A stretch of 63,581 nt of DNA, counting the filler. It is 5 parts of 5 records of this genome, joined end to end, with 100 filler letters (N's around TTAATTAATTAA, not from the genome) between each part and the next. Parts side by side here need not be neighbours in the genome. Positions count along the whole stretch, not along the records: positions 8,763 to 38,342 come from SRR20825010_33; 4 more parts are not named here. One strand, 5' to 3'. The notes under the pieces were generated by a model that was given only the letters and a program-made list of their open reading frames with translations, ran no database searches and was not told the DNA's origin. The position numbers were made by a program, and so were the translations under genes. Shown here piece by piece: positions 8,763-25,679 of this stretch (within the stretch, counting starts at the first letter, position 1; each line of letters starts with the position of its first letter).

Positions 8763-9770
8763 CCCATCACACGCATTGGACACAATCGCTATGTGAACCA
8801 CAGCGAACATGGTGGAATCATGGACCACAAGGGCAATTATATTGCAAAATATCCTTATGCGAAATTCCAAGAATGTTATGCGACGAACGATTTCATCTAT
8901 TCAGTCAGAGTAGGGAATGTCACGACGTTTGGCATTATGGCGAATGATCTCACCGTTAAAACTGAACCCATCTATTTTAGAGTGAATCCGCTTTCGTATG
9001 GTTATGCAGTCATGACAGCAGGTAGCAATCAGTTCGCGATTGTAAATATGTCGGGGAAGCAGATCACAGGATTTGACTTTGATCCAACACGAACTTTATA
9101 CAATCCCGAGGGGACCTATAATCTTTTAAAAATTACAGATGACGGTCCGAAGCACGGTGTAGTTGACACGTTGGGCAATACGATTATTCCATTTGAATAC
9201 GACATGATTCACCGCTACAAGTATGATTTAGCCATCGTTGAAAAGAATAAAAAAATGGGCATCGTAGATCGCACAGGGAAAGTCCAAGGTGAAATCGAAT
9301 ATGTTCAAATTAGCTTGCTTGACACGAACAAAATTCAAGTTCAAATCGCTGATCGAATTGGATTCATTGATCGAAATGGAGTAGTGGTTGAGCCTCTAAA
9401 ACACAAGGGTTTTGAGTCTTTGGATCCTAAATTCATCCACTTTACCGGTGCTAATGAATCGCGGTGGATTGTGAACACCATTACGAATGACACGATGGCC
9501 ATACTTCGTAGTGAAAGCTATGGAAAACAAGGATTTGCCCGTGTTATCCAAGGTGGAAAAAGAGGAATGATTGACAGAACAGGGAACTTTGTTTTGCCCT
9601 GCGAATATGATCAAATCTATCAGTTTAGAAATGGCGTTCTGCTCGTTCAAAAAAATTGGCTTTATGGATTATTGGACGAAGAGCTAAACATAGTTGAGCC
9701 GCTGGTTCACCGATTTTATAAGACAGGTAGTAATGGGAAGTATGCATTTTCTGAGACGCCAGAACAGTGA
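8763..9770 (+). CDS. WG-repeat protein, probably 5' truncated
   Basis: Repeated K.G.ID..G..I.P.EYD units. Confidence 0.85.
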   Translation, partial: PITRIGHNRYVNHSEHGGIMDHKGNYIAKYPYAKFQECYATNDFIYSVRVGNVTTFGIMANDLTVKTEPIYFRVNPLSYGYAVMTAGSNQFAIVNMSGKQITGFDFDPTRTLYNPEGTYNLLKITDDGPKHGVVDTLGNTIIPFEYDMIHRYKYDLAIVEKNKKMGIVDRTGKVQGEIEYVQISLLDTNKIQVQIADRIGFIDRNGVVVEPLKHKGFESLDPKFIHFTGANESRWIVNTITNDTMAILRSESYGKQGFARVIQGGKRGMIDRTGNFVLPCEYDQIYQFRNGVLLVQKNWLYGLLDEELNIVEPLVHRFYKTGSNGKYAFSETPEQ

Positions 9771-9817: not shown

Positions 9818-10041
9818 AGAAGATCAGTTCCAATCAAAGATTGAACGGATCGTTTTTTTCCTTTCTCTTTAAAGTTTATACCCATAAACAACCTCAAACG
9901 GATTCCTTTTTTCTTACAGCGCGGCGGAGAGAAATAGGGAAGGAGTGGTGTGAAGAACTTTAGTAATCGCAACAAATACCTGAAGAATACGGTATATATA
10001 CTCATGATTTTATGGTTTTCGGATGTATATATTTGATTCGG

Positions 10042-10245
10042 ATGACTTTGCAGAGAAAGTTTGGTCAAAACGTTTCGTTGAGGCGTAAACAAATTGGCAT
10101 CTCCCAAGAGAAGCTTGCTTTGACGGCAAATATTGATCGGACTTATATCTCAAAAATTGAGAAAGGTTCAGCAAACATTACGATAGGTATAATTGAAAAA
10201 TTATCTTTGGCACTTTCTACAGAAGCTGCCGATCTATTCAAATGA
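10042..10245 (+). CDS. XRE HTH regulator resembling restriction-modification controller (C) proteins
   Basis: GISQEKLA...NIDRTYISKIEKG. A Bacteroidota -7 box (TATATTTG, 10028-10035) lies 6 nt before ATG 10042, which suggests a leaderless mRNA. Confidence 0.85.
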   Translation: MTLQRKFGQNVSLRRKQIGISQEKLALTANIDRTYISKIEKGSANITIGIIEKLSLALSTEAADLFK

Positions 10246-10800: not shown

Positions 10801-11820
10801 ATGGCAACAGACAGGAATGAACACTTAGAGAAAGTTCTGGCTACTCATGATATTTCGAAAGTTGAAAATCTGAGTAAGTTCGTGGAAAAGAAGAACGGCG
10901 TAAAAAGCGCGTTGGCAACAAAGTTTTCTAAAGAGAAGGCTTCAAATCCAATTGACTCCGGCTCATACGCAAAGAAAACTGCAAATAACAACAAGTTTGA
11001 TATAGACAGTTGTATTCCTTTCAAAAAGAAAACCAAAGAAGAAGAGGACGGGTTCGGTACCTTGAGTGAAATGTTCGAAGCTGTATATGATTATCTGAAA
11101 AATGAGTATGCGGATACGGATAGCGACCTGAAGAAAGAAGATGTAAGAAAGCAAAAAGTGTCAATTGGACTGAAATTCACTATCGACGGCGAAGATTTTG
11201 ATATGGATGTCGTTCCAGGTCGAGAACGCCCAAACCATGGTGATTACAATGATAATAATACAGACCTGAGTCTTTATATCAATCCAAGTAAACGCTCAAA
11301 AAAGGAGGAGGATGAAAATAAGACGAGTATCAAAACAAACATTAAGACACATGTTGATTTGCTGTCAGGTGCAGGGCGTAAACATGAACGCAAAGTAGCC
11401 AGACTTTTAAAGGTTTGGAAAACTGAAAGAAAGGAACAGAATGGTGGTAAGTTGATCAAATCCTTCATGATGGAACTTTATACCAAGGAAGCATTTGACA
11501 ATAACTCAGATGACATTCCCAATGGGATATGGAATAAGGTCAAAATGGTCATGAATCATATTGTCGAAAATATTGAGACGAATAATCTTGTTGATCCAGC
11601 AAATTCGTCAAATGTTGTGTCTGATTCAATGAGTGATACTGCAAAAACAGATACGAAGCGAGAAATGAAGAAGACAATTAAGGAAATTGATGAGGATTCT
11701 GATAAAATTAAAGAATACTTTCCTGTCAATGATGATTACGACAACGACGACGACGACGGGAGCGGTAATGGGGGAACAGGGCTTGGGGCATCTCAGTTAA
11801 GCACTAATAGTTTCGGTTGA
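10801..11820 (+). CDS. CBASS CD-NTase (cGAS/DncV-like nucleotidyltransferase) 1
   Basis: SGSYAKKTA...FDID, RKQKVSIGL, DMDVVPG, RLLKVWK and LVDPANSSN motifs; flexible tail ending NSFG. Confidence 0.92.
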   Translation: MATDRNEHLEKVLATHDISKVENLSKFVEKKNGVKSALATKFSKEKASNPIDSGSYAKKTANNNKFDIDSCIPFKKKTKEEEDGFGTLSEMFEAVYDYLKNEYADTDSDLKKEDVRKQKVSIGLKFTIDGEDFDMDVVPGRERPNHGDYNDNNTDLSLYINPSKRSKKEEDENKTSIKTNIKTHVDLLSGAGRKHERKVARLLKVWKTERKEQNGGKLIKSFMMELYTKEAFDNNSDDIPNGIWNKVKMVMNHIVENIETNNLVDPANSSNVVSDSMSDTAKTDTKREMKKTIKEIDEDSDKIKEYFPVNDDYDNDDDDGSGNGGTGLGASQLSTNSFG

Positions 11821-11821
11821 A

Positions 11822-13975
11822 ATGAGTGAGTTATTAGAAACAGTAAAGTCTTTATGCAGCAATGACAGTTCAATAAAAGTTATTGTAGACTTTGTTGTTC
11901 AAGATTATTGGGTAGTTGGAAAAATAAGTATTGATTGTTTAGGTACAACGGTGCCTTTTAATGTAGAGATACCAACCAACTATCCATTAACTAATCCTAA
12001 TACGGATAACATTTCTATACGTTTCTACAATGAAGACCTAATCGGATTTAATCATATTAATCCGGACGGCTCTGTCTGCTTTCACCCTGAAAAGGATGAT
12101 AATATTGAGCGAAAATTTTTGTCGGAAATAGAAGGAGTTAAAAACTGGATAAACAAATATCTAATTCAAGGTATAGAGGACGAACGTTATACATACATAA
12201 TACATGACATTGACTATAGTAAAAGGCACAAGTTCTTTTTTACAAATGTTGATCTCAAATTTAAACCTGGAATGTATGGACATTTTGTCTATTCCATCCG
12301 TGATGAGACAACTTTTAGTAGAAAAGATCGTGGTGTTGACGTAGAAGTAAAAAGTATGTATCGAATTGGAATTGAATATTCTACTGACTATTGGTCTGCT
12401 CAATTTTCAGGAGATTTATTTGATGACAATCATTTTATCGGCGCATGGTATTTCTTAGATGAGGAACCTGTTGTAAAAGGTGATTCAAACAGAAGAAAAG
12501 GAATAACATCTTGGGATCAATTTAAAGGACTCCTTAGTGATGAGTTTATTAAGTATCTATATGATGGGTTGAGACGGGATTTTGGTAAAAATTATCTAAA
12601 CGATGGTTTCATTTATATTTCCTTTGGTTATAAAATACCCAACAACGAAGGGTATGAAGTGCATTGGGATTTATTAAAAGTACCTGCGGATCAGAATCCA
12701 ATTCAAACGGAGTTGATACCATTAGAGCAACGAACTTCAATGAATAAATACAGAGGTGTATTGACAGATCAAAAAACGCTATGGGTAGAAACTGAAAATG
12801 CCGACTATTCTCGGTTCTTTGGGCGTGGAAAATTAAGTAAGTCCATTACGGAAAGTCATATTCTTATCGTTGGTTGTGGTGCTTTAGGAAGTATGCTGGC
12901 GGAAAACCTTGTAAGAGGTGGTGCAAGGTCTTTGATACTTGAGGATTTTGATAAAGTGGAAATCGGAAATTTATGTAGAGCAAATTTTGATCTTGACAGA
13001 GTAAGTTTTCAAAAAGTAGAAGCTCTTAAGCGAAGGTTGAGTTCCATATCGCCATTTGTTTCCATAAATCAAGTAGATGTTAAGATGAACATTTTTGATC
13101 CTGAGAAATTGAAGGGGCTTCTAGATGAGAATATCGATATAATCTTTGATTGTTCAACGGACTCCGAATTGTTACACATTTTAGATGGCATTAATTATCA
13201 AGGAAAAGTTTTTAGTCTTGGAATTACTAATAAGGCCAAAGCACTTGCTTGCGTCAGTGGTGACATGCTAACTGAGAAAAAACATCACTTGTTTAATCTT
13301 CTTGAAAACGAACCTGCTGATTTCTTTGAAGGAACGGGGTGTGGTTACCCAACATTTGAGGCTAGTTATAATGATGTTAGCACTTTGCTGAATATCGCAG
13401 TCAACAAAATCAACAGAATCCTACAAGCGCAAAATGAATACTCATCTTTTGTAACAACTATTAGGGATAGTGAATCGTGCCTACAGTTTGACACAGTAGA
13501 ATATCTTCGCTATAAATCCGATCAACGTGAGAGGCTCATATATGTTTCAAAACTTGCGCTATCCAGAATGGAAGAAGAGTTAGTAAAGTATTATCCAAAT
13601 GAGTTTGGTGGAGTTTTAGTTGGGGCACGGTATAAAGGAGTATTAATGATTTCTGACATACTAGTTCCTGATGAGTATGAGAATGGTCGTACAAAATTCG
13701 TGAGGCATCCGGGGTCACTTAATGATAGATTAGAAAAGCTTTTTAACGAATCGAACGGTAGGATTGAATATTTGGGAGAATGGCATTCCCATCCTGACCA
13801 AAATGCTGTTCCAAGCAATGAAGATTTACGTACTATGCACTTGATAGCGGAGGACAAAAAAATAAACACAAATTCTCCAATATTACTTATAGGGGAAACA
13901 AGAAAGGACTCAATGAGTCCAAGGATCTATATGATAGACAGTAAAAAATTGATTGAATATGAGCGGGAAAATTGA
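11822..13975 (+). CDS. E2-E1-JAB fusion (Cap2 + Cap3 in one chain)
   Basis: E2: HINPDGSVCFH. E1/ThiF: IVGCGALGS, DFDKVEIGNLCR, GTGCGYPTF. JAB: EFGGVLVG...GEWHSHP...PSNED. Confidence 0.92.
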   Translation: MSELLETVKSLCSNDSSIKVIVDFVVQDYWVVGKISIDCLGTTVPFNVEIPTNYPLTNPNTDNISIRFYNEDLIGFNHINPDGSVCFHPEKDDNIERKFLSEIEGVKNWINKYLIQGIEDERYTYIIHDIDYSKRHKFFFTNVDLKFKPGMYGHFVYSIRDETTFSRKDRGVDVEVKSMYRIGIEYSTDYWSAQFSGDLFDDNHFIGAWYFLDEEPVVKGDSNRRKGITSWDQFKGLLSDEFIKYLYDGLRRDFGKNYLNDGFIYISFGYKIPNNEGYEVHWDLLKVPADQNPIQTELIPLEQRTSMNKYRGVLTDQKTLWVETENADYSRFFGRGKLSKSITESHILIVGCGALGSMLAENLVRGGARSLILEDFDKVEIGNLCRANFDLDRVSFQKVEALKRRLSSISPFVSINQVDVKMNIFDPEKLKGLLDENIDIIFDCSTDSELLHILDGINYQGKVFSLGITNKAKALACVSGDMLTEKKHHLFNLLENEPADFFEGTGCGYPTFEASYNDVSTLLNIAVNKINRILQAQNEYSSFVTTIRDSESCLQFDTVEYLRYKSDQRERLIYVSKLALSRMEEELVKYYPNEFGGVLVGARYKGVLMISDILVPDEYENGRTKFVRHPGSLNDRLEKLFNESNGRIEYLGEWHSHPDQNAVPSNEDLRTMHLIAEDKKINTNSPILLIGETRKDSMSPRIYMIDSKKLIEYEREN

Positions 13976-14780
13976 AATAAAGGAGTTGTTTAAGGGATTG
14001 CAAGATCAAATGACTTCTCAGTTAAACACTAATAGGGATTTTATTAAGCATCCCGGAAGCAAAGGAGACTCACTGGAGAACACTTGGATAGAATGGCTTA
14101 GCAATTATCTCCCCAACCGTTACTGCGTTGACAAGGCTATAGTTGTAGATTCTAAAGGAAACCTAAGTGATCAACTTGATTTAGTTATCTATGACCAAAC
14201 GTTTACACCATTTGTTTTTAAACAAAATGGTATAATGTATATTCCGGCAGAGGGAGTCTATGCTGTTTTTGAAGTTAAGCCAGACCTTTCGAAGGAGTAT
14301 ATTGAATATGCTGGAAATAAAATTGAAAGTGTTAGAAAGTTGTACCGAACTTCAACCTCAATAATTGACGTAGGAGTTAAGAGAAATGCAAGGCCGTTAA
14401 CTCAAATTCTTGGTGGAATCTTGGCAAGTGAAAGTAAAATTAAAACTGAAAAGACCATTACTTCACACGTCCAATCTTTGAAAGGTTTTGAAGGAATTGA
14501 CATTGGGTGTGCTGTAGACTTTGGGACGTTCTATGTGGATTATAGGGAATCATATACACCTTCCGGGACATTAGTAGTTTCTGATATGAATAAAGAAATT
14601 TCGGAATACTATTCCACGAGGACAATTGATAAGGTTCATTTCAGTGATAAGGAAAATTCTCTGGTAGCATTTTTTTTACAACTGATGAGATACCTTCAGC
14701 AGAGCATTGGCACAGTAGCAGCAATTGATTTGAACGAATATTCAAAAGCAATTGGTTTTACAATTGACAAAGAGCTTTAA
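13959..14780 (+). CDS. nucC: NucC-family cyclic-oligonucleotide-activated endonuclease
   Basis: HPGSKGDSLE..W, YLPNRY, SDQLDLVIYD, IPAEGVYAVFEVK, KIESVRKLYRTS and GTVAAID closely follow E. coli NucC as recalled. The ATG at 13959 overlaps the upstream gene. Confidence 0.92.
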   Translation: MSGKIEIKELFKGLQDQMTSQLNTNRDFIKHPGSKGDSLENTWIEWLSNYLPNRYCVDKAIVVDSKGNLSDQLDLVIYDQTFTPFVFKQNGIMYIPAEGVYAVFEVKPDLSKEYIEYAGNKIESVRKLYRTSTSIIDVGVKRNARPLTQILGGILASESKIKTEKTITSHVQSLKGFEGIDIGCAVDFGTFYVDYRESYTPSGTLVVSDMNKEISEYYSTRTIDKVHFSDKENSLVAFFLQLMRYLQQSIGTVAAIDLNEYSKAIGFTIDKEL

Positions 14781-14792
14781 TATCCAACCCTT

Positions 14793-15857
14793 ATGAAGAA
14801 AACCGTTAAATATGCTGGTCGTGGAGCATTAATTGTAGGCATTGGTAATGCGTTGTTAAATGCTATTCAGCAATTAAATTCAATTGATGAAAACCCAGAA
14901 AAAGAATTTGATTGGGGGGAATTGGTATTGGCTGGAGGAAAAGGCGCGCTGACTGGTGCTGCCGGCGGGGCTGTTGTTGGTGGTATTTTGGATTACCAGA
15001 ACTCTAAGGAGGCTCCGCTGAATACCAGTGCCATAATTAATACAATCGTTTCAGATTTGACACTCGATAAGACGAGTTCGGAATATATCTTTTTATCTAG
15101 AAAGGCAGATAATCTCATTAAAATTATTGAACGGGAGTTTCAACGAGAGCTTGGTGGGCATCTTTTAAAAATTGGCTCGACGGAAGATGGAACAGCTCTG
15201 AACTACGATTTTGATATTGATATTAGTGTTCCATTCAGTCCGAATAGCTTTTCATCAGTTGAAGTAATGTATAATGACGTGTATGATTTTTTGAATCGTT
15301 CATACAGCGACGAACATTTGAATATAATTCGAAAGCAAGGAAAATCAATAGGTCTGATTTACACTTACCGTGGTGAAGTAATGAAGATTGACATTGTACC
15401 TTATAAGCAAAGTCGAAATGCAAATAATAAGACAACTGGATATTTGTATGTTAACAAGAATTCTTTGTTTGAGCCAAATGGCTACACCAAAACGGACATT
15501 AGGGCCTTAAAAGCTATCAGTCTCAGTAATAGCCAACAGAAAATTCTAATTGTACTTAAAAACTGGAAAGAAACTAGATCTGTGCCAATTGGCTCGCATC
15601 TTTTGAAGTTATTTATTCTTGATGCTTATGCTGTAAATCGAGGTAATATTCCAGGTCGTTTAACCGATAAGGTAATAATGGTTCTATCTCATATTGAAAG
15701 TGGGATTATGACAAGACGAATCGTAAGTGCTGAGAATACGAATAACGTTTTAACTGACCTTTCCAAAGATAGAAAGAGAGAAATTGTATTGGAATGCAAA
15801 CGGTTACTAGATGATTACGAGTATCAACCAAACTCGATTTTGAAGTATTTGGAATGA
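14793..15857 (+). CDS. Second CD-NTase-like nucleotidyltransferase with an N-terminal glycine-zipper/hydrophobic extension
   Basis: IGSTEDGTA...FDIDISVPF, RKQGKSIGL, KIDIVP, LKNWK and ENTNNV motifs; N-terminal GKGALTGAAGGAVVGG. Confidence 0.85.
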   Translation: MKKTVKYAGRGALIVGIGNALLNAIQQLNSIDENPEKEFDWGELVLAGGKGALTGAAGGAVVGGILDYQNSKEAPLNTSAIINTIVSDLTLDKTSSEYIFLSRKADNLIKIIEREFQRELGGHLLKIGSTEDGTALNYDFDIDISVPFSPNSFSSVEVMYNDVYDFLNRSYSDEHLNIIRKQGKSIGLIYTYRGEVMKIDIVPYKQSRNANNKTTGYLYVNKNSLFEPNGYTKTDIRALKAISLSNSQQKILIVLKNWKETRSVPIGSHLLKLFILDAYAVNRGNIPGRLTDKVIMVLSHIESGIMTRRIVSAENTNNVLTDLSKDRKREIVLECKRLLDDYEYQPNSILKYLE

Positions 15858-15929: not shown

Positions 15930-16265
15930 TTGTCCATTTATTCAAATGATAATATTGAACAGAGAATCTTCATCCAAGAACTCAATCTCAACAAACGACG
16001 CTCCGTCAAAATTCAAGTCGGGGATTTAGGAGAACCAAGCAAAAATCTGTGGGTGTGCCTGGTACTAATCATGGAAGAAATGGAACCAACACTATACCTC
16101 ATTCCAAGTCTAGCACTCGCAGATATGGACGACTTCATTTTCAAGTACAACAAGTTGAACGCGCCTTTCGAGCATTTATCGAATTACGAGATCAAAGTGT
16201 TTAGAAATGGGATGGAAGAATTAGGCAAATACGCTTTTGAAAATATGATAGGGGAGTTGAGCTAA
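15930..16265 (+). CDS. Hypothetical protein, possibly an N-terminally truncated remnant
   Basis: 111-aa ORF with a TTG start; no family recognised. Confidence 0.45.
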   Translation: MSIYSNDNIEQRIFIQELNLNKRRSVKIQVGDLGEPSKNLWVCLVLIMEEMEPTLYLIPSLALADMDDFIFKYNKLNAPFEHLSNYEIKVFRNGMEELGKYAFENMIGELS

Positions 16266-17453: not shown

Positions 17454-18266
17454 CTAATCACAATTCCCGCAAATTATCGCCAAATCATCATCGCAAATAA
17501 ACTTCACATACTTCCCTTCTAAATCTTCCCACCAGCCAAACGTGAAACTAAACGAATCCGTTCCTGAAATTTTCGACATCCATTTATTGTTGCCTTTTTT
17601 CATGTGCAGATCAAGCTTCTTAATTTTGTTCTGCCGTACCTTCGTAGAAAAATCAAATTCTAGGCCAGCGTCCAAGGCTTGTTGTTTTATATTCTCAATC
17701 TCCTGATTCGTAGTTTTCTCAGAAATTTCGAACATCTTCATTTTTAGCGAATCTTGAGCATTTTTATCTCTTTTAATCAAATATGGAGCTGCAAGGTTCT
17801 TATTAAACCACTTTCCGTCTCGTGGAATCATCGTTAAACTCAGTTTTTCTAGATTCGGTGTTTGAACCGCTGCGCGCAATTTTTCTTGAGTGACAATCCG
17901 TTCTGGTTGATCCTCTTCATAATAAACGTTGATTTCTGGTCGCGTTTCGTTTTCTACCGGATTAACCGCTTTATCCTCCAAGGTTTGAATCATTGGTAGT
18001 GACTGTGGTTCAGTTGTTTCGCTTGAGTTTGTAGTTGATAATGTCGATACGACCAATGCGCTCGTCACTGTAATAATACTGATAGCTGTAATCATAATAA
18101 GTGTTTTAAATTTGAGTGATAACGCAGCCCATTTTGTGAGAATTCCACCGCCCGCTGCGGCTATAATAGACACATTTAATGCCTCCGAAGCTTGTGAATA
18201 CGACGTTTTTGGCGCTTGTTCACGTGCGCGACTGAACAGTTGATCGATTCTTTCGTTAGTTTCCAT
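17454..18266 (-). CDS. Membrane-anchored putative anti-sigma factor
   Basis: Overlaps the ECF sigma gene; short N-terminal domain, TM segment and a Ser/Thr linker. Confidence 0.55.
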   Translation of the reverse strand: METNERIDQLFSRAREQAPKTSYSQASEALNVSIIAAAGGGILTKWAALSLKFKTLIMITAISIITVTSALVVSTLSTTNSSETTEPQSLPMIQTLEDKAVNPVENETRPEINVYYEEDQPERIVTQEKLRAAVQTPNLEKLSLTMIPRDGKWFNKNLAAPYLIKRDKNAQDSLKMKMFEISEKTTNQEIENIKQQALDAGLEFDFSTKVRQNKIKKLDLHMKKGNNKWMSKISGTDSFSFTFGWWEDLEGKYVKFICDDDLAIICGNCD

Positions 18267-18786
18267 TCATTGCCTCCTTCCCTGTTTTGTATGCTGACTC
18301 AAAGGTCAAAATGGTGGTTAATTGAATCCTTCCTCGCCTCAAGCGTTGCTTTACTGAGTCCTCTGAAACGGATTGAATTTCAGCTATTTCACGAATAGAA
18401 AATCCAGAGATTTCAAATAGAATCAGGCATTCTCGTTGATCTGGCTTAAGTTCTGCCAATGCCTTGTGAAGTAAATGTACTTCTGCATCAATTTCGGCTT
18501 GATTTGTTCCTGGAATCGAGAAAATTTCTTCTGAATCCGCAAATACGCTCGTTTTCTTCTTGCGGTGACTATTCGCCAATAAACGAACGCTGATTCCAAA
18601 CAAAAAGGAAAGAAAAGCCTCAGATGATTTTAATGAATCGAACTTGTTGTACGCCACAATCAACGTTTCATTCATCAGGTCGTTATACTCCATCTCTCCA
18701 TACACACGCGCCCTGCAGAAGCGTTCGAAACGATCGTGAACCGGTTCGTAAAGTGATAAAAAGCGATGTTGTTTTGAAACTGACAT
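18256..18786 (-). CDS. ECF RNA polymerase sigma factor
   Basis: Region 2 (DLMNET...FLSFLFGI) and region 4 (GFSIREIAE...SVKQRLRRGR). Confidence 0.92.
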   Translation of the reverse strand: MSVSKQHRFLSLYEPVHDRFERFCRARVYGEMEYNDLMNETLIVAYNKFDSLKSSEAFLSFLFGISVRLLANSHRKKKTSVFADSEEIFSIPGTNQAEIDAEVHLLHKALAELKPDQRECLILFEISGFSIREIAEIQSVSEDSVKQRLRRGRIQLTTILTFESAYKTGKEAMNGN

Positions 18787-23873: not shown

Positions 23874-25679
23874 TTACTCTTTAATGATTTTTTGAGTCAT
23901 TTTTGAGTTTCCAACTGTTAACTCAATTAAGTAAATTCCTTTTGAAGCATCGCTAATATCAATTTGATCATTCACGCTACCTCCAGTGTATGTTTTTTGA
24001 ACGATCACACGTCCTTGAACATCAACAAGTCTTACGTTAACTGAAGCTGTAGAAGTTCCTTTGAAATCTAAAGTAAACACACCGTTATTTGGATTCGGGT
24101 AAACTGTGAATCCAGCTGACAATGATGATTCATCTAATCCTGCACAAGCATCAATATACATTGAAGTTGAATCTGAGTTTGTACATCCAGAAGTATCTGT
24201 GTAAGAATAAGTGATCCAGTTGTATCCTTGAACGCCTAATGAAGGGTCAAAGTTATTTCCTGAGATTCCCGTTCCAGAGTAAATCCCCGAAGCTGGCGTT
24301 CCAGCTGGCAATGTTACTGGACTGCTGTAAGCACAAAGCGTATCTTCTAGGAACGAAGCCAAAGTAACCGTTGGCAAAGGAAGAACTGTAACATCAAACG
24401 ATATACTGTCAGCATTTCCTGACCCATCTGTAGCGATGTACCAAACAGTTGTAACTCCAACGTTAAATGTACTTCCATTTGCATCACCTGATCCAGAACC
24501 AGTTGTTGCACCAGAGAGTGTGTGAGTGATAACTTCTCCACCACATGGGTCTACTGCAGTTACAGAAATTCCAGAAACAACAGGATCACAACTTTGAACG
24601 TTTGCAATTGGATCAATTACTGGAGCCAATGTATCAATAACAGTTACCGTAAAGTTACATGTCATTGTATCTGATGGTGTTACTGTTACAAGGTATGTTT
24701 CAGTTGTTGTTCCAACTGGGAAAGAACTTCCAGAACCTAACCCTCCGATGAGTGTTGTTGGAGCAGGAATAATTACTGTGAAAATCACCATTCCATTCCC
24801 AGAATTCACACCAGACAAGTTGTTTGGATTTGTTCCATTATTAAGGGAACCACCTCCGCCGCCATTAGCAGCACCAGTAGAATTTGATCCAGATCCTCCA
24901 CCAGAGTATCCGCCGCCACCGCCGCCGACTTGGTTTCCAGAACCGTTTCCGCCGCCGCCGAAGCCACCAACACCATAACCGATATTCGCACCAGCTCCAC
25001 CATTTACAAAGGCAAAACCACCAGAACCTGCAGACCAACCGTCAGCACCATTGGTAAAGAAACCTCCACCAGCACCTGAAGCAAATGATGCACCTACAGA
25101 ACCACCATTACCTAGTGTTCCGCCAGCACCGCCACCTCCACCGCCAGCTGCACCAGCTGTAGTGATTTGTCCGTGCTTTCCAATCCAATCAACTCCTCCT
25201 GATGCACCAGCACCACCGCCAGCGATGATTAATGGGTTCCCACTTACGGCATCCACCACAAATGTTCCACCACCACCACCGTTTCCAGCGTTGTTGTTTT
25301 CACCAACCAAAACATTTAAAACTTGACCAGGAGTTACAGCGAAATCACCAATCATAATTGCTCCTAAACCTTCAGTAACGCTTGATCCACCAGCACCATT
25401 TCCACCTGATGCTCCTCTTGTTTCAATAGTCAAACTTGTAATTCCAGCAGGAACTGTCCATTGTGTGATTGCTCCTGAAAATACAATTGTATCTGTGACG
25501 GATTGACAAGCATCAAAGCCTTGAGGGGCAGTGTAAGTGAAAAGTGTACCGCATGATCCTGAATCTGCATAGGCAGTGACATTCGAAGGACAAGTGATCT
25601 CGGCGCATTGCGACCAAGCACTCATTGAAAAGGCGACTGAGGCAAATGCCAAGCCTGTTTTTGTAATAATTGTTCTCAT
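23874..25679 (-). CDS. T9SS cargo: glycine-rich domain, HYR domains and a type A C-terminal sorting domain
   Basis: Signal peptide, poly-Gly segments, FPVGTTT/FNVGVTTV HYR motifs and VYPNP...GIYLI...KIIKE. Confidence 0.9.
   Translation of the reverse strand: MRTIITKTGLAFASVAFSMSAWSQCAEITCPSNVTAYADSGSCGTLFTYTAPQGFDACQSVTDTIVFSGAITQWTVPAGITSLTIETRGASGGNGAGGSSVTEGLGAIMIGDFAVTPGQVLNVLVGENNNAGNGGGGGTFVVDAVSGNPLIIAGGGAGASGGVDWIGKHGQITTAGAAGGGGGGAGGTLGNGGSVGASFASGAGGGFFTNGADGWSAGSGGFAFVNGGAGANIGYGVGGFGGGGNGSGNQVGGGGGGYSGGGSGSNSTGAANGGGGGSLNNGTNPNNLSGVNSGNGMVIFTVIIPAPTTLIGGLGSGSSFPVGTTTETYLVTVTPSDTMTCNFTVTVIDTLAPVIDPIANVQSCDPVVSGISVTAVDPCGGEVITHTLSGATTGSGSGDANGSTFNVGVTTVWYIATDGSGNADSISFDVTVLPLPTVTLASFLEDTLCAYSSPVTLPAGTPASGIYSGTGISGNNFDPSLGVQGYNWITYSYTDTSGCTNSDSTSMYIDACAGLDESSLSAGFTVYPNPNNGVFTLDFKGTSTASVNVRLVDVQGRVIVQKTYTGGSVNDQIDISDASKGIYLIELTVGNSKMTQKIIKE

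Follow-up and report, generated by a model that had tools for sequence, protein, structure and literature searches.

Why should a CBASS (an antiphage signaling system based on cyclic oligonucleotides) operon that already encodes one cyclase carry a second at its 3′ end, and what might stand in that second enzyme in place of a conjugatable C-terminal tail? The question is raised by a stretch of DNA of 63,581 nucleotides (hereafter the window), which joins five parts of five records of one genome with 100 filler letters between each part and the next, and in which positions 8,763–38,342 come from SRR20825010_33. The + strand of this part carries a compact type II CBASS operon in the order CD-NTase 1, a Cap2–Cap3 fusion, the NucC effector and, as the last gene, CDN2, a second cGAS/DncV-like nucleotidyltransferase (CD-NTase). 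CBASS operons are generally described with one cyclase, and the trigger of their activation is poorly understood. CDN2 is a CD-NTase with a new conserved module, a two-helix hairpin with a glycine zipper at its N-terminus, and with a new operon role; it belongs to a conserved clade of second cyclases joined to three regulatory types of CBASS, in which the built-in hairpin replaces the conjugation tail. The gene and its two parts are laid out as follows.

14793–15857, + strand: CDN2, CD-NTase paralogue with N-terminal glycine-zipper hairpin, 354 aa (PADLOC Cyclase PDLC00803, 1.5e-34)
14793–15008, + strand: N-terminal appendage of CDN2, residues 1–72 (basic tail, helix 1, loop, helix 2; from the AlphaFold2 model and coevolution)
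15009–15857, + strand: catalytic core of CDN2, residues 73–354 (G128–S129, D141/D143, D200; basic; without a C-terminal tail)

The catalytic core and N-terminal hairpin of CDN2

The open reading frame (ORF) of CDN2 begins at the first start codon past an in-frame stop, 12 nt after the stop codon of NucC, and the strand opposite is full of stops. A sequence-only reading of the locus had described a second CD-NTase with an N-terminal glycine zipper, and its particulars are borne out: the strings that it quoted, GRGALIVGIG and GGKGALTGAAGGAVVGG, are residues 9–18 and 48–64, the nucleotidyltransferase residues are intact (GS at 128–129, DFDID with D141 and D143, and KIDIVP with D200), and the protein does end in LKYLE. 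The claimed colinearity with CD-NTase 1 is likewise recovered by BLASTP, at 29% identity over 288 aa (E = 2e-29), in an alignment that takes in the RKQ..SIGL, D.VP, LK.WK and N..NV motifs. By fold, catalytic residues and similarity to CD-NTase 1, CDN2 is a true CD-NTase paralogue.

The PADLOC profile PDLC00803 covers only residues 81–345 of CDN2. A Pfam scan of the protein gave no match, and with the NCBIfam model CBASS_cyclase_a it reaches 26.1 bits, where the cut-off is 200. Precomputed Pfam matches exist for some of the 120 homologues listed, and most of these carry PF18144, the SMODS family. An alignment of 74 family members, extending to ~21% identity, shows G128, S129, D141, D143 and K256 to be invariant and D200 to be kept in at least 90% of sequences. 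With this alignment as input, AlphaFold2 (AF2) returned a model with a mean predicted local distance difference test score (pLDDT) of 96.5 and a predicted TM-score (pTM) of 0.89. Foldseek with the model lists CdnC, CdnB and CdnD first, followed by cGLR, CdnG, OAS-family proteins, MiD51 and cGAS. Superposition by VIA-align gives Z = 24.1 and a root mean square deviation (rmsd) of 2.5 Å over 259 residues with Bacteroides fragilis CdnB (7ljo), and Z scores of 22.1, 21.9 and 21.8 with CdnC, DncV and CdnD, respectively, indicating the bilobed cGAS/DncV-like fold; a sequence search of the PDB found only OAS2 (0.0035) and CdnC (0.006). The core is basic, with an isoelectric point of 8.4–9.5 in 16 of 16 family members, versus 5.1–7.1 in 15 of 16 co-encoded primary cyclases. 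The ratio of nonsynonymous to synonymous substitution rates (dN/dS) is 0.07–0.13 in the core and 0.15–0.32 in the N-terminus, with dS saturated. CDN2 is thus a complete CD-NTase with conserved catalytic residues, and it is predicted from sequence and fold to be competent.

All VIA-align rows begin at CDN2 residue 73–81, which corresponds to about residue 1–5 of the bacterial enzymes. Because the solved CD-NTases align only from this point on, residues 1–72 constitute an appendage that has no counterpart in them. The AF2 model folds the appendage into two 31-residue helices, residues 3–33 and 41–71 (block pLDDT 88–98). A basic tail, M-K-K-x-x-K-Y, leads into helix 1, which is followed by a polar loop ending in F39-D40-W41 and by helix 2, on which G51, G55, G59 and G63 are found. 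Residues 1–80 folded alone give the same hairpin (pLDDT 88.9, pTM 0.69), consistent with an autonomous unit. Ridges of small residues run along helix 1 (positions 11/12, 15/16 and 20) and helix 2 (51/52, 55/56, 59 and 63), and Gly or small residues are found across the family at i, i+4 and i+8 on one helix face, as in a GxxxGxxxG motif.

This architecture is conserved well beyond chance. In the 74-sequence alignment G51 is kept in 91%, G55 in 95%, G59 in 88% and G63 in 59% of sequences, M1 and Q27 are each kept in at least 90% (Q27 in 95%), and N23 is kept in 69%. The invariant positions of a 27-sequence alignment are Q27, F39, K50, G51, G55, G59, G63, T78, G128, S129, D141, D143 and D200. Since M1 and the N-terminal residues are conserved, the start codon is correct and the extension is ancient and selected. 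The sequence-only reading had named three ways in which it could fail, namely that the extension is absent in homologues, that the real start lies downstream, or that the protein clusters with non-CD-NTase nucleotidyltransferases. None of these is observed: the extension is kept in homologues, M1 is aligned in all full-length homologues, and CDN2 groups with CD-NTases both in the tree and in the structure search. A wrong start or an artefactual ORF is likewise ruled out by the alignment of M1 across full-length homologues, the conserved N-terminus and the closed reverse strand.

The fold of the hairpin was also assessed by mean-field direct coupling analysis of 216 family members (effective number of sequences 166). 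Residue pairs 19–47, 30–43 and 15–58 are among the top 15 long-range couplings, and 20–48 and 6–62 fall within the top 60. The four helix–helix coupled pairs have i + j of 66–73, which points to an antiparallel hairpin. Couplings between hairpin and core are not enriched: of the 354 top pairs they make up 83 (23%), against an expectation of 33%, and they are spread across every core element.

The hairpin is also nearly free of charge. Over the 74 sequences, charged residues account for 5% or less at 14 of the 15 positions from 11 to 25 and for 3% or less at every position from 51 to 62; in CDN2 itself the uncharged stretches are residues 8–25 and 47–65. The first ten residues have a mean net charge of +2.5 and are positive in 96% of the aligned sequences, and the helix ends carry the aromatic residues Y7, F39 and W41. 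Features of this kind would be expected of a membrane hairpin whose two ends lie in the cytoplasm, or of a fully buried oligomer interface.

Searches for the hairpin in other settings gave little. Foldseek with the lone hairpin model found no match at E ≤ 1e-3, and a wide VIA-align search reached a best Z of 7.0, in the noise range for helical hairpins; its top rows are mostly transmembrane (TM) hairpins of membrane complexes, which we do not take as evidence. Two word-based searches with residues 1–78, both of limited sensitivity, found nothing among shorter or longer proteins. A feature search of the ESM Atlas for the hairpin in other architectures gave no usable match, and the structural neighbours of a homologue's N-terminus in the same resource are generic helical hairpins, many from membrane proteins, with TM-scores of 0.40–0.57, and are leads only. 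PHROG matches are weak and inconsistent. A link to the PADLOC family PDC-M09B was considered, as six of eight N-terminal segments have weak colinear matches to it (E = 1e-4 to 1e-2), and was rejected: hhalign with a PDC-M09B-like protein from genome G153 gives a probability of 2%.

In the AF2 model the chain ends in LKYLE right after the last helix, H346–353, and across the 74 family members the last residue is Gly in five and Ala in four, with no conserved C-terminus. CD-NTase 1 has a long, acidic, Gly-rich tail with the final letters ...STNSFG, and of the type II primary cyclases co-encoded with CDN2 relatives 8 of 9 have an FG end; in locus L021, the ninth, the end is RYS. That CDN2 has no conjugatable tail, as the sequence-only reading held, is confirmed by its own end and by the variable C-termini of the family, and the further claim that it escapes Cap2 conjugation gains from its presence in type III (HORMA/TRIP13) and E2-only operons. 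Given that CDN2 has no Gly tail and is found in operons that have no Cap2, its independence from Cap2 conjugation can be considered well supported at the level of sequence. The primary cyclases of two E2-only operons (L001 5565–6524 and L004 5645–6613) end in ...PWCDC or ...PWCNC, with Cys instead of FG.

The CDN2 family and its operons

CDN2 relatives were located in 23 loci by a genome scan (one per species) and in 39 loci by a metagenome scan. An upstream neighbor is visible in 52 informative loci (19 from genomes, 32 from metagenomes and genome G328), counts that are not independent, as some metagenome loci come from the same populations as genome loci. In 52 of 52, the CDN2 gene lies on the same strand as the CBASS effector and follows it either directly or after one extra gene, and no stand-alone copy was found among them. 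The gap between CDN2 and the gene upstream has a median of 5 nt (range −8 to +23; 44 loci). CDN2 is read as a co-transcribed last gene, whatever the regulatory type of the operon. The operons fall into the following types.

Type II (Cap2/Cap3) with NucC: L002, L003, L012–L015, L021 and 16 metagenome loci
Type II with a NARF-domain effector that has two TM segments: L011, L017, L028, L047, L058
Type II with a decayed Cap4-like effector: L020, in which CDN2 is frameshifted too
E2-only with NucC: L001, L004 and 5 metagenome loci
Type III (HORMA/TRIP13, PDLC00808 cyclase) with NucC: L005, L007–L010, L016 and 7 metagenome loci
Contig ends just upstream of the effector, type unreadable: L006 and L045 (NucC), L050 (NARF-TM)

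The gene is optional, because the sister operons of genomes G165 (cyclase, E2, NucC) and G192 (cyclase, Cap2, Cap3, NucC) lack it.

A search of 5.8 billion clustered proteins found 155 relatives of CDN2. Among the relatives listed, 119 of 120 cover at least 95% of the query; they measure 309–375 aa and come, where a source is named, from Flavobacteriales, Chitinophagaceae, Cytophagales and other Bacteroidota. The family goes by the database name "hypothetical protein". Exhaustive HMMER against 1.84 billion representatives gave 340 matches at E ≤ 1e-3, of which 62 are at E ≤ 1e-30. Alignment from residue 1 holds for the full-length relatives (~350 aa) as far as about 21–24% identity; the matches below that level are ordinary CD-NTases of ~270–320 aa, whose alignment begins only near residue 100. 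A tree of 72 rows, built by maximum likelihood, groups the N-extended proteins in a single clade of 33 rows (SH-aLRT support 97), two of which are short predicted proteins that start past the hairpin. This clade is sister to the primary cyclases of the PDLC00803 type (30 rows, support 95), and the type III primary cyclases stand apart on a branch of great length. Operon type is not mirrored in the CDN2 tree, and the gene therefore moves between CBASS backbones.

As judged from the sequences collected, the clade appears almost only in Bacteroidota, and it is defined by the N-terminal two-helix glycine-zipper hairpin. It is rare there: in 401 sampled Bacteroidota genomes the only N-extended matches are in G001, the centre of the query itself, and G328. 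The label Caulobacter (Pseudomonadota) is attached to a single locus, L014; its two cyclases fall among Chitinophagaceae sequences in the tree, and it is likely a mis-binned contig of a metagenome-assembled genome. A mobile-element origin of CDN2 was rejected: no relative was found in the viral contigs or phage records searched, a plasmid search gave a single distant, core-only match, and GC content is uniform across the operon of the window (0.35–0.38).

The remaining features of the locus, in window positions, are given here.

10012–10245, + strand: HTH_3 protein, 77 aa, upstream of the operon (Pfam HTH_3, 3.1e-12)
10801–11820, + strand: CD-NTase 1, primary cyclase, 339 aa (PADLOC Cyclase PDLC00803, 1.6e-68)
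11822–13975, + strand: Cap2–Cap3 fusion (E1–E2 plus JAB isopeptidase), 717 aa (PADLOC E1-E2 PDLC00827, 4.3e-208, residues 6–714)
13953–14780, + strand: NucC endonuclease effector, 275 aa (PADLOC PDLC00745, 1.2e-94; Pfam DUF6602, 3.1e-32)
15930–16265, + strand: small downstream ORF, 111 aa, TTG start (homologues lie directly 3′ of CDN2 elsewhere)

The HTH_3 protein is a possible transcriptional regulator of the operon and only a putative member of the system. The Cap2–Cap3 protein also matches PADLOC JAB (1.7e-34), Pfam ThiF and Pfam Prok-JAB; the same one-ORF fusion of Cap2 (E1–E2) and Cap3 (JAB) is present in L002 and L003, and the two are separate genes in L011–L017 and L021. The small downstream ORF, which matches no family in Pfam or PADLOC, has two in-frame stops upstream of it in the window and lacks the N-terminal ~35 residues of its homologues. 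These are proteins of 133–141 aa encoded directly after CDN2 in four metagenome loci (L032 5111–5596, L034 7019–7492, L042 2827–3252 and L047 3630–4040), in both type II and type III operons. The ORF is probably an N-terminally truncated copy of that protein, which may be an accessory gene linked to CDN2 or a neighbor at the edge of an inserted CBASS block. The genes that flank the operon (including 17454–18786 and 23874–25679, both on the − strand) look chromosomal and typical of Bacteroidota; among their products are an extracytoplasmic function (ECF)-type sigma factor next to a single-TM protein, a P450, and one protein bearing a C-terminal sorting domain of the type IX secretion system (T9SS).

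Several neighbors in the other loci deserve mention in their own right. In place of NucC, six loci (L011 7193–7993, L017 7160–8008, L028 2520–3272 on the − strand, and also L047, L050 and L058) encode a protein of ~250–280 aa that has a NARF domain at its C-terminus (PF20299, up to 1.3e-33) and two segments of strong hydrophobicity. By its sequence it resembles a membrane effector whose nucleotide sensor is Rossmannoid; we found no paper that uses the full name of the NARF family, Nucleotidyltransferase-Associated Rossmannoid. Directly upstream of several related operons, where the operon of the window has the HTH_3 gene, are HTH-Peptidase_S24 (LexA-like) genes (L002 2872–3471, L003 1514–2143, L036, L039 and L065), whose domain content suggests damage-responsive control of expression. 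Genes similar to Mrr_cat restriction endonucleases lie between NucC and CDN2 (L012 7240–8004, L013 7239–7991) or after CDN2 (L044 7175–7873), and a ChaC-like gene lies between NucC and CDN2 in L002 (7453–7992). Decay is visible in L020, where frameshifts or stops break up the genes of the primary cyclase, of the Cap4-like endonuclease-SAVED effector and of CDN2 alike, and in L061 (6001–7055), where CDN2 is split in two pieces.

Full-text searches of the literature brought up no account of a CBASS CD-NTase that is N-extended, carries a glycine zipper or is a second cyclase, although large CBASS censuses may already list such operons without comment. Operons with two cyclases could already be listed in the operon tables of Millman et al. 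2020 or Whiteley et al. 2019.

A proposed hairpin-regulated second cyclase and the alternatives

The reading that we prefer, to which we assign a probability of roughly 0.45, is that CDN2 is an optional second cyclase that is regulated by its hairpin, through membrane association or clustering, and that signals to the effector of its operon. CDN2 would be an extra cyclase appended at the 3′ end of CBASS operons. From the missing C-terminal Gly tail and the operons without Cap2, we infer that it is not regulated by Cap2/Cap3 or by HORMA/TRIP13. The uncharged hairpin with its ridges of small residues would instead hold the enzyme at the inner membrane or drive its self-association, and a change induced by phage would cluster or release the basic nucleotidyltransferase core, thereby switching CDN2 on. 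The trigger could be envelope stress or another cue that the primary cyclase misses. Once active, the core would make a nucleotide that is read by the operon's own effector, in the case of NucC presumably a cyclic trinucleotide such as cyclic triadenylate (cA3). Two sensors would then feed one effector, and the range of sensing would be widened. What is inferred here is the enzymatic product, the part played by the hairpin at the membrane or in oligomers, and the trigger.

The sequence-only reading, which is supported in part, had put forward a membrane-associated or oligomerising protein that acts as a membrane sensor, a synthase–effector fusion or a decoy-signal producer, and any of these may apply. 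The near absence of charge and the ridges of Gly and small residues make membrane insertion of the hairpin plausible on sequence grounds; the hydropathy scores do not bear it out. In windows of 19 residues, with values after the Hessa scale, the summed hydrophobicity of the two helices is +7.0 and +5.6 (Kyte–Doolittle means 1.15 and 1.37), whereas genuine TM helices of neighboring proteins score −1.2 to +1.4 (Kyte–Doolittle 1.9–2.3) and a buried GxGxxG segment in the soluble E1 domain of Cap2 scores +5.4.

Four points weigh against the preferred reading. Simple hydropathy puts both helices well below the true TM controls and near the buried segment of soluble Cap2. The pTM of 0.89, together with a linker pLDDT of 94–96, may reflect a hairpin that is docked rigidly on the core, not one that is free in a membrane. 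Pfam glycine-zipper families (PF05433 included in the test) match only below their thresholds: six of eight N-terminal segments have such matches, the best of them 26.9 bits and 4e-6 (PF13441, threshold 28.9; the homologue in L009), and CDN2 itself reaches 17.2 bits, below the gathering threshold. A single shared product, moreover, is an assumption, because the effectors differ between operons (NucC, NARF-TM and Cap4-like).

The first two of these points would be expected of a soluble regulatory hairpin, one that docks on the core or on a partner in an autoinhibitory or partner-binding role and makes CDN2 a second cytosolic sensor cyclase with no role at the membrane. The polar residues Q27 and N23, which lie inside helix 1, fit such a hairpin as well. 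A docked hairpin should, however, present a polar face, and yet positions 11–25 and 51–62 carry almost no charge on any face; coevolving pairs between N-terminus and core fall short of expectation and are scattered, and the hairpin is predicted to fold alone. We regard this alternative as somewhat unlikely. Less probable still, and in our view distinctly doubtful, is a guard contained in a single chain and similar to Panoptes or Hailong, in which a constitutively made decoy nucleotide restrains the enzyme's own hairpin until a phage sponge or nuclease removes it and oligomerised hairpins breach the membrane. Glycine zippers are typical of oligomeric membrane pores. Such a guard would need no Cap2 or HORMA input, and the attachment of CDN2 to CBASS operons whatever their regulator or effector type would fit an aim at generic evasion of CBASS; if true, CDN2 would be an analogue of Panoptes and Hailong that is built on a CD-NTase and fused into one chain, and the presence of the gene on CBASS operons of every regulatory type would be explained. 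Decoy-nucleotide guards exist, in that Panoptes types I and II and Hailong pair a constitutive cyclase with a TM effector (PMC13712596). Against it, residues 73–354 are all cyclase fold and leave no separate domain for sensing a nucleotide, the hydropathy is marginal for insertion, and constitutive cA3 would activate NucC. The known Panoptes cyclases are mCpol enzymes and not CD-NTases, and their effectors are separate proteins (PMC13712596).

A role outside signaling is the most improbable of the alternatives weighed here. CDN2 might serve as a scaffold to bring in CBASS components, act on a protein or RNA target as a modifying nucleotidyltransferase, or be a toxin that depletes NTPs; CD-NTase-like folds have been recruited to noncatalytic roles, with MiD51 and NF90/NF45 among the structural matches, and the NCBIfam cyclase model falls far below its cut-off (26 bits versus 200). 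A pure scaffold is at odds with the invariant GS and DxD and the nearly invariant third Asp. Its nearest structures and profiles, moreover, belong to bona fide CBASS cyclases, its clade has primary CBASS cyclases as sister, and the gene was never seen outside a CBASS operon in the 52 other informative loci.

CDN2 offers a genetically simple handle on how a CD-NTase is switched on, be it by clustering, membrane cues or envelope stress, and on whether, in bacteria, one effector is wired to two sensors or signaling is guarded against phage sponges.

Comparison with known systems

The closest structural relatives of CDN2 are CdnB (B. fragilis, 7ljo), CdnC (Escherichia coli MS115-1, 6u7b/6p80) and CdnD (6p82, 7d4j), which fold like residues 73–354 (rmsd 2.5–3.4 Å over 257–261 aa), share the GS/DxD/D catalytic set at a sequence identity of only 13–18%, and, like CDN2, are encoded in CBASS operons with NucC. 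CdnC and CdnD are cA3 synthases that partner NucC. All three have no equivalent of the 72-residue hairpin, and CDN2 is the second, not the sole, cyclase of its operon.

Helix 2, with its GxxxGxxxGxxxG ridge, is reminiscent of the Pfam glycine-zipper families Gly-zipper_YMGG (PF13441), Gly-zipper_Omp (PF13488) and Gly-zipper_OmpA (PF13436). These are mostly small envelope lipoproteins, whereas the CDN2 module comprises two helices, lacks both lipobox and Cys, and is joined to an enzyme of the cytoplasm.

MiD51 and MiD49 are eukaryotic cGAS-like proteins of the nucleotidyltransferase fold. An N-terminal anchor followed by a cGAS-like fold is the architecture of MiD51, to which that of CDN2 can be likened, its own anchor role being a prediction; the cytosolic domain of MiD51 matches the CDN2 model (4nxu, Foldseek E = 2.7e-7). 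MiD51 is held in the mitochondrial outer membrane by one hydrophobic N-terminal TM helix, is catalytically inactive and serves as a Drp1 receptor. In CDN2, by comparison, no catalytic residue is lost, and the two-helix glycine zipper is marginally hydrophobic. If the tether is real, CDN2 adds a bacterial example of an N-terminally tethered cGAS-like enzyme.

Panoptes (OptS/OptE; mCpol plus CARF-TM) and Hailong resemble CDN2, with its putative membrane hairpin, in combining a nucleotide synthase with a membrane-active module, placed to back up cyclic-nucleotide immunity. The Panoptes cyclase is an mCpol that works with a separate effector with its own nucleotide-binding domain (PMC13712596). 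CDN2, a CD-NTase with a 72-residue hairpin and no sensor domain, falls outside the definition of a Panoptes-type system.

A further comparison is with the type II primary cyclases whose regulation is by Cap2/Cap3 conjugation, which form the sister clade of CDN2 and are encoded in the same operon. With no C-terminal Gly tail, CDN2 cannot be a canonical Cap2 substrate as they are. One study describes a type II CBASS cyclase of Bacillus cereus that is conjugated by Cap2 to the membrane-stress protein PspA and recovered in the membrane-associated fraction, and proposes that it is activated by clustering or oligomerisation (PMC11153139). The idea of a membrane-linked cyclase activated by clustering thus has an experimental precedent (PMC11153139). 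What is added after translation in Cap2-conjugated cyclases would, in CDN2, be built into the polypeptide.

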